A stretch of DNA of 46,471 nt from a virus (lineage: Duplodnaviria; Heunggongvirae; Uroviricota; Caudoviricetes). The stretch lies in IMG/VR virus record IMGVR_UViG_2606217103_000006; one strand, given 5' to 3'. This document shows positions 25,106-32,020 of this stretch, in pieces; the stretch's first letter is position 1; each line of letters starts with the position of its first letter. The notes below the pieces were generated by a model, which had not been told where the DNA came from, made no database searches, and was given only the letters and a program-made list of their open reading frames with translations. Both the position numbers and the translations under genes were made by a program.

Positions 25106-26173
25106 ATGAGTCAACATCAATATTATCCACAGCTGAAATGGAAGCCTGCTGAATATGAATCTCTGATGCTTTTAGATCAAACTACGCTCTCTGGTTTTAC
25201 TCCGATCATTACCATTCCAGACATAGACTGGGATTATGAAAACGAATGCTACAAGAAGAGTTTGAGTTCTTACTTATCTGACTTCGGTATTAACCTTGCG
25301 GCATCCTGGAAAGCCAATCGTCCTGTTTTGCTGGATGTTAAATATTTAGATAAACATGGTTCGAGCCGCCATCATCCTCTAGATATGTGTATCCAAGATG
25401 CTAGAGTAAATGGTAAGGAAATTATCCCTGTTGTTTCTCCCGCATATTCAACAAACTATATACATGCTGTTCAACGCAACTTAATCAATGGGCTCGCTAT
25501 ATCTATCACCCCCCAGACATGGCACCAATTCACAAGTCTGGTTAACCACTTAAATATTCATCCTAGTTTAATTGATGTAATCATTGATTTTGGAGATATT
25601 CAAAACGCAACTGATAGTTTAAAACAACAAGCATTAAGCATGGTCAACACATTATCAGGCCAAGCTCCGTGGAGAAACTTGATTTTATCTTCAACCGCAT
25701 ACCCGGCATCACAGGCAGGGATACCGCAACATCAAGTTCATCATATTCCGCGCCATGAATACGATCTTTGGATGTACGTAGTACAGAATTTTAGCAATGG
25801 AAGAACGCCAAGTTTTAGTGATTATCCCACCGCTAGCTCTACCATTACGAGCGTAGACCCACGCTTCATGTCTCAGTATGTCTCAGTGAGATATTCGAAC
25901 GATACCTCATGGATCTTTGTAAAAGGTACCGCAGTTAAAGGAAATGGATGGGGCCAAACTAAAAACTTATGTACTACCCTTGTTAGTTCGCCAGAGTATC
26001 AAGTCTTTGGCTCCAAATTTAGTTGGGGGGATGATTACATTTACCAAAGATCATTAGGCGCTAACAAATCTGGCGGCTCTAAAGAATGGCGTAAAGTTGC
26101 ACATACGCACCATATTACGTTAGTCGTGAGACAGCTTTATTGGTTGGCGCAGACTCAGCCTGCCAAGCCTTAA
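25106..26173 (+). CDS. uncharacterised 355-aa protein, cargo cassette gene 1
   Basis: Strong SD AAGGAG 7 nt upstream; AT-rich; no catalytic motif recognised. Confidence 0.7.
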   Translation: MSQHQYYPQLKWKPAEYESLMLLDQTTLSGFTPIITIPDIDWDYENECYKKSLSSYLSDFGINLAASWKANRPVLLDVKYLDKHGSSRHHPLDMCIQDARVNGKEIIPVVSPAYSTNYIHAVQRNLINGLAISITPQTWHQFTSLVNHLNIHPSLIDVIIDFGDIQNATDSLKQQALSMVNTLSGQAPWRNLILSSTAYPASQAGIPQHQVHHIPRHEYDLWMYVVQNFSNGRTPSFSDYPTASSTITSVDPRFMSQYVSVRYSNDTSWIFVKGTAVKGNGWGQTKNLCTTLVSSPEYQVFGSKFSWGDDYIYQRSLGANKSGGSKEWRKVAHTHHITLVVRQLYWLAQTQPAKP

Positions 26174-27151: not shown

Positions 27152-27625
27152 TTATTTTAAGCACTGCGTCCTGATGTACTCCTGCAGGTAGTTGACCTGA
27201 GCGGTTATCTTGTCGATTCCACTTCGGAGACGGTAATAATTGAGTTCAGCATCTGCTGTAAGTCTTGGGCTTTCTCCATCGCCCATGCTGCTGGCTCCGG
27301 TCGTTGACTTTGCACAGGTGGCGGCGACTTGCAGGCGCTTACGCCCAGCAGAAACATCAGCACGAAGACTTTCGATAGTCGCGTTAGCATCAGCAAGCTC
27401 CTTTGTGTATCTGGCGTCGAGTTCTGCTACATCACGCTGACGCATCTGCATGTCAGTAATTGCCACGTTCGCCAGCTTCAGTTCTCTGGCATTTTTGTCG
27501 CGCTGGGCTTTGTAGGTAATGGCGTTATCGCGGTAATGATTAACAGCCCATGACAGGCAGACGATGGTGCAGATAACCAGAGTATAAATAATCGCTGCGA
27601 CTCTGCTCACTGATCTATCCCCCAA
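27152..27625 (-). CDS. rz: i-spanin Rz
   Basis: 157 aa; N-terminal TM, coiled coil; overlaps endolysin end. Confidence 0.85.
27205..27396 (-). CDS. rz1: o-spanin Rz1 (lipoprotein embedded in Rz, +1 frame)
   Basis: Lipobox LLGVSAC, proline-rich mature region. Confidence 0.8.
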
Positions 27626-28140
27626 CAGGCTAATGCGCTTTCCTGGTCACGACGAATAACCTGTCCATAGCAGTTATTTGAACGTATGCGGCAATCGCGC
27701 CCACCATCTTTTATCCACCAGCGAATCGCCTCGCATGCGCCCTTACGATCACCGGCATTCAGCCGCTTATAAAACGTCGACGGGAAACACTTACCGGGGC
27801 CAATGTTATAGGGACAGAATGACGCTATACCCGCTTTCTGTGGTTCGGTCAGTGGTACTTTAATATTGCGCTCCACCCATGCCAGCGCCTTATCACGTTC
27901 AATAGCGTTAACCTGGTCGCATTTTTCCTTCGACAGCTTCATTCCCGGTATGACGGGCTTACCATCCACCATTGTGGCACCACGACAGATGGTCCATATA
28001 CCGGAACCATCGCGGTATGCCGTAGTGTGGTTACCCTCTTTTTCATCCAGAAACTGGTCAAGTATTTGAGGAGCAGACGCGCCTGCAGCAATCAGCGCCA
28101 GAACAGCAGCTGACAGGCCGTATTTGATTTTTGCGCTCAT
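27607..28140 (-). CDS. R: SAR endolysin (GH24 lysozyme-like)
   Basis: E-x8-D-x5-T catalytic arrangement ([16 protein letters not shown]); Gly/Ala-rich N-terminal signal-anchor-release segment. Confidence 0.85.
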
Positions 28141-28514: not shown

Positions 28515-28730
28515 TTACTCTCCCCGTGCCGCCTTACGACGGTCCTCTCTGATTTTGAAATACAGGTTAGTCAGATATGTCAGCAGCCCAAACAGCAGAC
28601 TCCCCAGCACGCCTATTGCCGCCCACTGAGACGGGGAAACCCTGTCCAGCAACTGCAGGAACCAGTAGCCCGTTCCCACCGCTGACGTGGTGTATGACAC
28701 ACCTGTTGTGATTTTTTCCATCTGGTACAT
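28515..28730 (-). CDS. S: pinholin (S21-type holin/antiholin with dual start M-YQ-M)
   Basis: 71 aa; C-terminus ...[32 protein letters not shown] matches remembered phage 21 S; track ORF has spurious N-terminal extension. Confidence 0.85.
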
Positions 28731-28880
28731 ACCCCGTCTCCCGTTATCCGGAAGCTGACAACAATAAAAAAAGCCACCAGTTAAGTACTGATGGCTCTGA
28801 TAACTCATGCAGGCATCTCAGACGACCCACTGACACTACCGGTGAGTTTAACGATACCTTCCATTTGACTGGCTCACTTT

Positions 28881-30749
28881 TTATGATGATGCTGGTGCAT
28901 TTATCTCCAGCACCAGACTTTCTATCTCAACGCCATACGCTGCATTTTTTGTAACATCCGTCAGCGTCAGCGCATTCAGCCCCAGTGTCAGACTGTCTTT
29001 TATGACCTGGAATGCCGGGCCAGCCACTCCATTCAGTTTCGGAGTAACCGTGGCACTGCCGGCGGTGAACACCAGCTCCAGCGTCTGCCAGTCGTTACCG
29101 TAATCGCCGAACTCCCCCAGCTTCGTGTTTCCGGCTTTCCTGTGATGCATCAGATTCACTCTGCCGTCAATGGTCTGAGTGAAGTAAGACATCAGGAACG
29201 GATTACCAGTACCCGTCATCGCCACATCATCAGGAACGGGAGCGTCCGTATACAGATAAATCCCCAGCCCGAACTGATTGTTGGTCAGTGCGCCTGAGAG
29301 GCGGAACTTACAGGTCAGTCTGCCGCCCTGTGTCAGCAGGGTAATTGCGTCATCCACCGGATGCATCAGGTACCAGGTTTTATTGCTCTGCTTGGTGATC
29401 TTAAATACACCCTCTGACAACTGAATTCCGCCATTCTTAATGCTCCAGCCCTGCGCAGCAGCATCTCCGGCTGTCGGCAACAGGGAGATTGTGCGTACGG
29501 ATGCATCTTCAGACGGCCCCGATGGCGTGTCGCCGCCGGGCGAGGGTTTGATTTCCGGTGCCTTACCACTAATGAAGGCTAAGGTGCGACCGGCTACGTT
29601 CAGAATAGCAGTTGCCATACGATCGGGAATAATGCCACGACGCGCCCATGAGCTGAAATGCGTCGGGCGATTTGATGATACCCAGTTTTTGTTCGTTCGG
29701 GATGCCGAACCGTAATAACCAGACCCGACAATATCAGGATCTTCTGACGGGTTGTTTGTCGGTGTATTAACTCCGCTACCATCGGTCATAAAGGGAACAA
29801 AATAAATCTGCTGGGATTCTTTACCTTTATATGCACCATATACCACTTCATATTGCGTACCGTGTTCTTGTTTCCACGCGTATGTCGTGTCGCCACAAAT
29901 CCAGGGGACTGATGCCGGACTTCCACCGTGACACTGCGCCGCCAGCCCGGCAAGGTCAGCACGGAACTGCTGTACCATTGCAAGAAATGCTGCTGGCTGC
30001 TGGGCGTAACTGGCATTCGTCATATCGAATTCCCCCTGCATCCAGCATATCGCCAGCAAAACGTTTTTCGGGTTTTTCTGCAATGCTGCCTTCGTGCGGA
30101 AAAGCAGATCCTGATATAACGGCTTACCCACTCCCCAGCGAGCCGAATCCTGACTGGCCCCCGTGGACTCGCTGAATGTCCCCTCCGTGCCCTTGGTGAA
30201 TGCCGAACCACCACGACAGCATGGTACCAGCAGGATCCCCGCATTATTAGGGATATACGGAAGCAGTTTTTTGGCAATATGTAAGCCCTGTCCGACACAA
30301 CCGTACTGCCCTTTGCTCAGGTCAGCCCGGGGATGGTTAATCGTACTCATATCCTGAACATCATGCAGACAATGGTCAGCAGGAATGATGTCGTTAAATA
30401 CGCATACTTCGCCACCGGGAGTCACTGTGTTACGACGGGCCAGTTGCTTAATGCGCGGATGGGGCGCATCGTATGAATCCGGAAGCGGAAGCCCTTCACC
30501 GTAAGCCATGGCATTGGACTGCCCGGCCAGTACGATGACGTAGTACCACTCCGGCTCAGTTGCACCACTGACGACCACATCACCTTCTGCTGCAATCGCC
30601 TGCATCAGGGTATAAGGGGTTATGGCCACCGGACTACCAAACGGCTGCCAGCCCTCTTTCAGTTTATGTGTCAGCTTTTCCGCAAGATCTGACGGCGACG
30701 CCGCCCTGACAACATCATAGTGTTTAAATGCCATGGTTCTTTCCACCAT
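28881..30749 (-). CDS. NanS-p-like sialate O-acetylesterase (DUF1737 N-terminus + GQSN esterase domain)
   Basis: 622 aa; LAGQSNAMAYGEG motif; same position as the esterase gene downstream of stx in Stx phages. Confidence 0.8.
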   Translation of the reverse strand: MVERTMAFKHYDVVRAASPSDLAEKLTHKLKEGWQPFGSPVAITPYTLMQAIAAEGDVVVSGATEPEWYYVIVLAGQSNAMAYGEGLPLPDSYDAPHPRIKQLARRNTVTPGGEVCVFNDIIPADHCLHDVQDMSTINHPRADLSKGQYGCVGQGLHIAKKLLPYIPNNAGILLVPCCRGGSAFTKGTEGTFSESTGASQDSARWGVGKPLYQDLLFRTKAALQKNPKNVLLAICWMQGEFDMTNASYAQQPAAFLAMVQQFRADLAGLAAQCHGGSPASVPWICGDTTYAWKQEHGTQYEVVYGAYKGKESQQIYFVPFMTDGSGVNTPTNNPSEDPDIVGSGYYGSASRTNKNWVSSNRPTHFSSWARRGIIPDRMATAILNVAGRTLAFISGKAPEIKPSPGGDTPSGPSEDASVRTISLLPTAGDAAAQGWSIKNGGIQLSEGVFKITKQSNKTWYLMHPVDDAITLLTQGGRLTCKFRLSGALTNNQFGLGIYLYTDAPVPDDVAMTGTGNPFLMSYFTQTIDGRVNLMHHRKAGNTKLGEFGDYGNDWQTLELVFTAGSATVTPKLNGVAGPAFQVIKDSLTLGLNALTLTDVTKNAAYGVEIESLVLEINAPASS

Positions 30750-30994
30750 CTGAAAAATGATTCTTTAAAATACCTGACATGTAATACAGAAAAAAAACAA
30801 AACCATACCTTAAATAAAAACCTCATCATCAAGCAGATATGCATGGATAAACTACAAGACGAGATATAAACCACCCTGCATTTAAATAAACAATAAACAA
30901 CATCAGAAAAATAATTCTGCTCTATGGTTTACAATCAAAAATATCATTTATACTTTTCAGAACATCACCAGCAAGGCATAAACAAGGAAACTAA

Positions 30995-31330
30995 ATGAAG
31001 TGGATTGTGATTGATACAGTTATCCAGCCATCATGCGGAATATCTTTTTCAGTCATATGGAGTAAAATAAAATTAATAATCTGGTATCAATCGGATGCTT
31101 TCTTACCTCCTGAAAGTATATTTACACTGACTCACACAGGCATCATGCTCAATAACAAAGTGCTACCTGTAACCATTTACAACGTAGTGCCATTCAATAA
31201 AACATTCTGGAATTTAATCAAAAACAGCCAGGAATGCCCTACAAATACAGATAACGTATTGAATGAATGCTTTAATAACCGTTGCACTCTGCAAATATGT
31301 CCTTATGGACTAAAACAACAAAGTCCATAA
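30995..31330 (+). CDS. hypothetical Cys-rich small protein (111 aa), AT-rich cargo
   Basis: RBS AGGAAA 6 nt upstream; 6 Cys; opposite strand to late genes; no recognised family. Confidence 0.4.
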
Positions 31331-31365
31331 GGAGTTTACTCACATCTGACAAAATCAATATAAAC

Positions 31366-31551
31366 AGCCCCTCCGGAGAGGGGCTGGAGAGTGGCGCTAT
31401 GTGCCATTGCATGGTGCCGGGTGCCTCCCGGTGAATTCAGTACCAGCACCTGAATCCGCGATTATCCCATATACCTACTCGCTGATTGCCCCTCCGCACA
31501 GGGGGATTCACCATGCGAAATTTTTTAACAAACTTCCCGCTGGCCAGACAA
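31366..31551 (-). repeat. repeat unit 1: candidate sRNA gene (promoter-like TTGTCT/TTAAAA, ~108-nt structured domain 31409-31516, terminator hairpin 31366-31385)
   Basis: Perfect 8-bp-stem hairpin AGCCCCTC-cgga-GAGGGGCT; domain closed by GCATGGTG/CACCATGC; internal hairpins conserved with unit 2. Confidence 0.55.
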
Positions 31552-31828
31552 TAATCGCCAGCCTGAATTATGAGCAACGTAGCATTTTACGGGAAAACTG
31601 TTTTCTGCAGTAAAAAGGCCCGCCGGAGCGAGCCTGGAAGGATAGCGGTCATGTGATGCCGGTTTCCCGGTAACTCAGCATCGGTATCTGAGTCAACGTT
31701 TTCTCTACTGGGTCATTTCCGATACGTTCCGCCTTCCGGCAGACTTTCATCACGTCAGAAAATATAGCACCCTGAGTAACAGGACAGTACTCAGAATTCA
31801 GGAAACTGTGACACATCCTGCACAGAAA

Positions 31829-32020
31829 AGCCCCTCCGGAGAGGGGCTGAAGTATAGCCTAATTTCTGTCTGTCGCATGGTGCCAGGTGCCTCCCGGTAA
31901 ATTCAGCCTGTCTACTGAATTTGCATGTTCTCTGGATCATACACTTTGCCAGATGCCCCGCCGCTGAGGGGGATTCACCATGCGATGTAATTTTTAACAA
32001 ATTCTCCGGCAGCCAGACAA
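31829..32020 (-). repeat. repeat unit 2: second copy of candidate sRNA gene (domain 31875-31983, terminator hairpin 31829-31848 followed by TTTTCTGT on minus strand)
   Basis: Same stems as unit 1 with different linker/loop sequences. Confidence 0.55.

Follow-up and report, generated by a model that had tools for sequence, protein, structure and literature searches.

The analysed window is a stretch of 46,471 nucleotides of prophage DNA (Caudoviricetes; IMG/VR record IMGVR_UViG_2606217103_000006). It contains an open reading frame (ORF) on the + strand which, according to the ORF list, runs from the ATG at 30995 to the TAA at 31328–31330 and encodes 111 amino acids plus the stop. The genes and features around it, from the lysis genes to the Q antiterminator, are the following.

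27607–28140, − strand: lysozyme
28515–28808, − strand: P21-type holin
Within the late region, − strand: DUF1327 protein
28881–30749, − strand: SASA/DUF1737/DUF6645 esterase of the nanS-p type, full length (622 aa)
30736–31364, no strand assigned: AT-rich iraL cassette (moron) of ~630 bp and 32.5% GC, between the esterase start and the sRNA terminator
30928–30956, + strand: sigma-70-type iraL promoter, with the −35 hexamer TTTACA at 30928–30933 and a −10 hexamer that is either TACTTT at 30951–30956 or TATACT at 30949–30954
30962–30994, + strand: iraL 5′ UTR with a putative start at A30962, by homology to the 5′ end mapped by RACE in strain CFT073
30984–30989, + strand: Shine-Dalgarno sequence AAGGAA, 5 nt before the ATG
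30995–31330, + strand: iraL coding sequence (RssB anti-adaptor, IraM/IraL/RssC family), assigned by identity, HMM, structure and dN/dS
31356–31544, − strand: STnc100-family sRNA gene, convergent with iraL and a separate neighbour (Rfam RF02076, 132.8 bits against a gathering score of 47)
31609–31784, − strand: degenerate STnc100 copy (RF02076, 30 bits)
31820–32013, − strand: second full STnc100 copy (RF02076, 140.5 bits)
32079–32219, − strand: DUF3927 ORF of 46 aa (E = 3.8e-18), between tRNA-Arg and the distal STnc100 copy
32279–32438, − strand: tRNA-Met and tRNA-Arg
32479–33537, − strand: N6/N4 DNA methylase
34110–34931, − strand: Q antiterminator

In the order of late transcription, the region reads Q, methylase, tRNAs, DUF3927 ORF, STnc100 copies, iraL (antisense), esterase and holin. 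The preliminary description of this DNA had the ORF running against the late operon, and Q, the methylase, the two tRNAs, the esterase, the holin and the lysozyme do all lie on the − strand. It had also called the ORF AT-rich, which agrees with a GC content of 34.8%, as compared to 51.2% for the window and 50–53% for the neighbouring late genes.

The borders of the AT-rich cassette are defined by comparison with VT1-Sakai: homology covers window positions 30679–30735, stops at 30735, and resumes at 31366. At the place of iraL, VT1-Sakai carries an unrelated spacer of 232 bp with 47% GC. A decayed iraL cassette was considered as the origin of this spacer and rejected, since the local alignment (score 18) does no better than shuffled sequence (mean 18.9).

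The STnc100 copies form a tandem array between the tRNAs and iraL, each with a strong terminator hairpin at its end. They are the source of the direct repeats of ~467 bp in this region and of its three hairpins that resemble terminators. A 2026 preprint connects STnc100 with the PasD sRNAs and also reports that it is associated with esterase genes. The terminator hairpin of the iraL-proximal copy (31386–31365; −22.9 kcal/mol, z −3.4) lies 35 nt beyond the iraL stop codon. The + strand side of this hairpin is not followed by a T-run; therefore, iraL is without an obvious intrinsic terminator, and at its 3′ end it runs towards the terminator of the sRNA gene. Counterparts of the DUF3927 ORF are present in CFT073 and OkiPb01705, and the one in strain AF58 is frameshifted.

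In VT1-Sakai, an STnc100-like element follows stx1B and precedes the esterase gene. Judged by this gene order, iraL adjoins the stx position, one unit downstream past the STnc100-type element, and does not lie in it. The earlier placement of the ORF in a toxin-equivalent slot is accurate as far as the Q-to-lysis interval is concerned, but the site borders on the stx insertion point rather than being identical to it. The exact anatomy of the cassette, from the STnc100 terminator to the esterase start and relative to the stx position, goes beyond the literature that we read.

Several further ORFs of the window lie outside the Q-to-lysis interval. An ORF for a Ser/Thr protein kinase of eukaryotic type (37376–38170, + strand; Pfam Pkinase, E = 1.4e-31) overlaps a PP2C_2 phosphatase ORF (38154–38870, + strand; E = 1.4e-10); this pair lies in the early region, opposite to the Q-side genes, and looks like another cargo module. 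A 355-aa ORF at 25106–26173 on the + strand, which runs opposite to the lysis and esterase genes, has a full-length match to Pfam ‘Beta_protein’ PF14350 (E = 8e-56); it could be a further moron, situated past the lysis cassette. Finally, a 222-aa ORF resembling class I SAM-dependent methyltransferases (Methyltransf_12/23/25) is found at 612–1280 on the + strand, beyond the tail-fibre genes near the left end of the window.

Identity, coding status and spread of the gene

No family had been recognisable in the preliminary description, a statement that profile and sequence searches overturn. The ORF protein matches the NCBIfam model NF007393, ‘anti-adapter protein IraM’, with 162 bits against a curated cutoff of 121 (E = 4.7e-48), and the match is end to end, with ORF residues 1–110 aligned to positions 1–113 of the 114-position profile. 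The IraM/IraL/RssC family corresponds to NF007393 / PRK09919, and membership was defined as a full-length HMM match above the curated cutoff. A phmmer search against PDB sequences retrieved the IraM chain of the IraM–RssB crystal structure 8TWD (E = 9e-32, residues 1–78).

The family name was obtained from NCBIfam because Pfam gave nothing: neither IraL nor K-12 IraM had an hmmscan match to any Pfam family at E ≤ 10. The precomputed Pfam column nonetheless gives PF11183 (PmrD) for every IraM/IraL homologue, a label that the fresh hmmscan did not reproduce; a different model version or threshold may be behind this discrepancy. Membership in the PmrD family was rejected, as the Pfam model does not match the protein and the similarity is structural only (TM 0.71–0.73).

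Within the IraM/IraL/RssC family, the ORF protein is 100% identical to IraL of CFT073 (C_RS06710 / WP_000871291.1, c1429), and 335 of the 336 nucleotides are shared, the single difference being synonymous; amino acid identity to K-12 IraM is 62%. The published iraL subtype is defined by a coding region at least 95% identical to that of CFT073 iraL from end to end, together with a conserved iraL promoter (Hryckowian et al. 2014, PMC4045071). Here, one synonymous change was found in 336 nt, and the upstream region is ~98% identical to that of CFT073. This also exceeds the 96% that was taken as the minimum in a separate test of the upstream region, which additionally asked for the mapped mRNA 5′ end, likewise present. 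The K-12 iraM orthologue, for which at least 95% identity, the same locus and the same upstream DNA would be expected, was ruled out by the 62% amino acid identity, the unalignable upstream DNA and the different locus. WP_000871291.1 is labelled ‘anti-adapter protein IraM’ by PGAP in both CFT073 and AF58; on iraL proteins, this label is a family name and not an orthologue call. iraL is a horizontally acquired paralogue of iraM. A tblastn search found no second IraM/IraL family member in the window.

Overall, we assign a probability of about 95% to the ORF being iraL, an already characterised prophage-borne anti-adaptor gene of E. coli, and hence a real gene and not a new one. In annotation, it should read iraL, RssB anti-adaptor, rather than ‘hypothetical’ or ‘toxin-slot cargo’.

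The preliminary description had named conservation of the frame as a check and a decayed fragment of a known gene as a refutation. The frame is intact in homologous loci: in an allele of a bovine strain with 89% nucleotide identity, in 16 Escherichia representatives of the family, and in 47 family representatives down to 20% amino acid identity, a set that includes Salmonella salamae, Citrobacter, Enterobacter, Intestinirhabdus, Dryocola, Kosakonia and Cronobacter. Among iraL alleles, dN/dS was 0.17–0.36 (pairs differing at nonsynonymous sites), and 0.14–0.17 was obtained against iraM. Such values, well below 1, indicate from the substitution pattern that iraL is under purifying selection.

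A megablast search with the 701-bp cassette gave at least 80% coverage in 1430 out of 5426 complete E. coli genomes, where the gene is annotated as ‘anti-adapter protein IraM’, and also recovered four phage records with the annotation ‘anti-adapter protein’. CFT073, phage vB_EcoS-640R1 and strain AF58 carry the cassette with 98–100% identity, as do roughly one in four complete E. coli genomes. In CFT073, AF58, OkiPb01705 and phage vB_EcoS-640R1, iraL likewise points against the late genes, with the tRNAs on one side and the esterase/holin on the other. The prophages are integrated at different sites (at potB in CFT073, at ompW in AF58), and the recurrence of one arrangement despite this shows that the cassette moves from one lambdoid late region to another.

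These data also bear on the reading of the gene as a silent or decaying remnant without a present function in the prophage. Many genes of the slot are pseudogenes in relatives, such as the shortened DUF1737 esterase gene and incomplete hypothetical ORFs of CFT073 or the frameshifted DUF3927 ORF of AF58, and the iraL upstream region itself carries three substitutions relative to CFT073. The frame, however, is full length and encodes a protein identical to the functional IraL of CFT073; dN/dS is well below 1; the −35 and −10 hexamers, the Shine-Dalgarno sequence and the ATG are intact; and the cassette is 98–100% conserved in about one-fourth of complete E. coli genomes. A remnant is thus very improbable, and an intact iraL is the preferred reading.

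Predicted fold, RssB contacts and the cysteine tail

An AF2 model of IraL based on the 47-sequence alignment reached a mean pLDDT of 82.6, with residues 1–80 at 87–96. It contains strands at residues 2–11, 16–22, 26–33, 42–45, 49–52 and 55–66 and a helix at 69–77. The top Foldseek match of this model was 8twd_A (TM 0.90, rmsd 1.2 Å, 78 columns), followed by PmrD structures (TM 0.71–0.73, rmsd 2.1–3.0 Å). An earlier AF2 run on 16 close homologues was poor (pLDDT 54.8), although 8twd_A still ranked first by Foldseek. IraM has been described as a PmrD-like β-barrel with a hairpin and a helix (PMC10844676). Sensitive homology searching and structure prediction, both proposed in the preliminary description, thereby converged on the same answer, the IraL family and the fold of 8twd_A.

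In IraM, residues I4, I6, W22, K26 and I42 touch the N-terminal (receiver) domain of RssB (PMC10844676). When contacts are mapped onto IraL by homology to IraM in 8TWD, all five positions of this cluster I are identical, as are three of the five in cluster II (plus T13S and L75I) and two of the four in cluster III (plus H63N and I64V), a map to be read alongside published two-hybrid data in which IraL and IraM bind RssB differently. P66 is also identical. The four substitutions T13S, L75I, H63N and I64V fall in contacts to the C-terminal domain and linker of RssB. [quoted passage not shown]

The N-terminus, described earlier as hydrophobic, is moderately so: the highest Kyte-Doolittle mean over 19 residues is 1.12, and D7 and Q11 lie inside the stretch. 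In the model, it forms strand 1 of the barrel (pLDDT ~93) and part of the predicted RssB interface, and it does not look like a signal peptide. Here the idea of a secreted or membrane-targeted Cys-rich virulence peptide, with an N-terminal signal or anchor and disulfide-bonded cysteines, has to be weighed. It could draw on the moderate hydrophobicity of the N-terminal 30 residues, the five cysteines, and the closeness of the gene to the stx position of Stx phages. It conflicts with the low hydropathy maximum and the polar residues just mentioned, with residues 2–33 being three barrel strands (pLDDT 87–96) that superpose on cytoplasmic IraM, with I4, I6, W22 and K26 being RssB-contact residues, and with the identical protein of CFT073 interacting with cytoplasmic RssB and altering sigma-S stability. 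We regard a secreted peptide as having a negligible probability and retain the cytoplasmic anti-adaptor IraL.

IraL has five cysteines (14, 81, 92, 97 and 102) and not six, as had been counted before. C14 is not conserved among the 16 Escherichia representatives. Among the 47 family sequences, which diverge to as little as 20% identity, C81, C97 and C102 alone are invariant, while C92 and P103 are at least 90% conserved, as are M1, P12, W30 and W72. The tail motif reads C-P-x9-C-x4-C-x4-C-P (C81-x10-C92-x4-C97-x4-C102-P) and is comprised in IraL residues 81–107, or window positions 31235–31315. Its use as a family signature is an observation of the present analysis and not a published criterion, and IraL carries the motif. 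Although miscounted, the cysteines singled out by the preliminary description as ‘Cys-rich’ are a real feature, as the alignment of the conserved tail indicates.

IraM was crystallised as residues 1–78, the full-length protein being unstable, and its tail was described as less conserved and flexible (PMC10844676). The corresponding part of the IraL model has a pLDDT of 49–67. A search of the accessible literature for cysteines or zinc in IraM/IraL retrieved nothing relevant. We tentatively propose, from conservation and at rather long odds, that residues 79–107 are a conserved Cys4 module and not a dispensable tail, which could act as a zinc-binding or redox-sensitive knuckle controlling folding, stability or activity. 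If true, metals or redox state would feed directly into sigma-S proteolysis through such a module. The family-wide conservation of the four C-terminal cysteines appears to be undescribed in the literature that we read.

Promoter, regulation and predicted function in the lysogen

The promoter of iraL has been assigned to sigma-70, and the 5′ end of the CFT073 iraL mRNA was mapped by RACE as ACATCACCAGCAAGGCATAAACAAGGAAACCA (PMC4045071). Over its 32 nt, this sequence matches window positions 30962–30993 at 31 positions, with one substitution, and in the present prophage iraL transcription would accordingly be expected from A30962, by homology. The spacer between the −35 hexamer TTTACA and the −10 hexamer TACTTT is 17 bp. 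Relative to CFT073, the region upstream of iraL shows three changes: one nucleotide after the −35 hexamer, at −2 from the start site (30960), and at −4 from the ATG. Within the promoter stretch 30928–30956, the base immediately 3′ of the −35 hexamer is thus the sole difference. Two of the three changes also occur in phage vB_EcoS-640R1, and over 701 bp the window and strain AF58 are 100% identical. A plausible ribosome-binding site and promoter-like upstream sequence had been pointed out from the letters alone, and both are borne out by AAGGAA 5 nt before the ATG and by the hexamers TTTACA and TACTTT/TATACT.

Similarity between iraL and iraM begins only at the ATG, and their upstream DNA cannot be aligned. 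Regulatory DNA common to the two genes was accordingly rejected, no upstream similarity being detectable.

In CFT073 and Shigella sonnei, deletion of iraL lowers sigma-S in log phase, and the log-phase half-life of sigma-S falls from ~5 to ~2.5 min (PMC4045071). When iraL with its native promoter was placed at the att Tn7 site of the mutant, sigma-S stability went up (PMC4045071). This activity is seen in unstressed log phase, and the same paper makes no mention of PhoP or Mg2+ dependence (PMC4045071). iraL was also statistically linked to uropathogenic, prostatitis and Shigella isolates (PMC4045071). Elsewhere, CFT073 iraL mRNA was reported to rise by 1.6 log2 upon a shift from 23 to 37 °C (PMC12890032), and IraL to be raised in a fur mutant (PMC7157518). 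Given the temperature and fur data, iraL is not purely constitutive.

The anti-adaptor might alternatively be regulated like IraM, responding to a specific stress such as low Mg2+ through PhoP/PhoQ and not acting constitutively in exponential phase. Besides the mRNA increase at 37 °C (PMC12890032) and the IraL increase in the fur mutant (PMC7157518), this would be consistent with a PhoP-box-like direct repeat, TGTTTA-TTGTT-TATTTA, with one mismatch, at 30883–30899 on the − strand, 63–79 bp upstream of the putative iraL start and invariant in CFT073 and phage 640R1. However, equally good sites occur in 4.5% of dinucleotide shuffles of this AT-rich upstream stretch, the iraL upstream DNA has no detectable similarity to that of iraM, and the IraL paper reports unstressed log-phase activity and a sigma-70 promoter (PMC4045071). 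We consider IraM-like regulation unlikely; the repeat is a weak lead, a hint from the sequence and nothing firmer, and sigma-70-driven activity in unstressed growth remains our preferred reading.

On this basis, a sigma-70 promoter of its own would drive iraL in the lysogen, uncoupled from the Q-dependent late operon and against its direction. The product is predicted to be a cytoplasmic protein of ~12 kDa, in which a PmrD-like β-barrel with a flanking hairpin and helix (residues 1–78) is followed by the Cys-rich tail. It would bind the ClpXP adaptor RssB, chiefly at the α4-β5-α5 face of the receiver domain, and RssB held in this way would be blocked from handing sigma-S (RpoS) over to ClpXP. 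Sigma-S would then be stabilised already in exponential growth, and the general stress response of the host would be pre-armed. For the present host, RssB binding and sigma-S stabilisation are inferred by analogy with the identical CFT073 protein. After induction, late antiterminated transcription running antisense through the cassette may interfere with iraL expression.

Expression in the lysogen had been proposed earlier as a check, with lack of expression as a refutation; expression has been published for the identical gene of CFT073 (PMC4045071), and for the present lysogen it is expected by homology. The ORF had also been presented as possible virulence or fitness cargo. An independently transcribed AT-rich moron encoding a fitness-related factor agrees with this, but the product is a cytoplasmic regulator of proteolysis and not toxin-like. 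What had been observed about the ORF was therefore largely correct, and its interpretation as fitness cargo, right in outline, is partly supported. The gene is a clear case of a prophage moron rewiring a core host regulator, and iraL lysogens would be expected to keep higher sigma-S in exponential phase.

Comparison with known systems

The closest known counterpart is iraL of CFT073, with an identical protein, coding DNA identical at 335 of 336 nt, and a promoter and 5′ UTR ~99% identical to those of the window gene. Its prophage holds the gene in the same place, between Q/tRNAs and the DUF1737 esterase/holin, and on the opposite strand. The two prophages differ in other respects: that of CFT073 is integrated at potB, has a truncated esterase gene and carries an IS200 after Q, whereas the present one has a full-length esterase (622 aa), a DNA methylase after Q, and two and a half STnc100 copies.

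K-12 IraM (b1160) belongs to the same family and has the same fold, with 62% amino acid identity overall and 65% over residues 1–78. [quoted passage not shown] Reports on IraM describe a response to Mg2+ starvation and binding to both domains of RssB. Its gene lies beside e14/icdC, as opposed to the lambdoid late region in the case of iraL. In detail, K-12 iraM is located just outside the annotated e14 boundary (after icdC), in the locus iraM-ymgK-ymgL-ycgX, and adjoins ycgX (DUF1398); a DUF1398 gene, ydfO, is found downstream of the lysis genes in the iraL prophage of CFT073. K-12 iraM may thus lie in what is left of a lambdoid late region.

PmrD (4HN7, 2JSO, 2RQX) has a small β-barrel fold in common with IraL at 14–20% identity and, like IraM, binds the receiver domain of a response regulator (PMC10844676). 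Its target, however, is PmrA rather than RssB, and it is without a Cys4 tail.

Finally, stxAB, like iraL, are accessory genes of the Q-to-lysis interval and lie near an STnc100-type element and a nanS-p-like esterase gene. They share the strand of the late genes, precede the STnc100-like element and depend on Q read-through, whereas iraL lies downstream of such an element, on the opposite strand and with its own promoter. The two share a neighbourhood, with no sequence or functional relationship between them.
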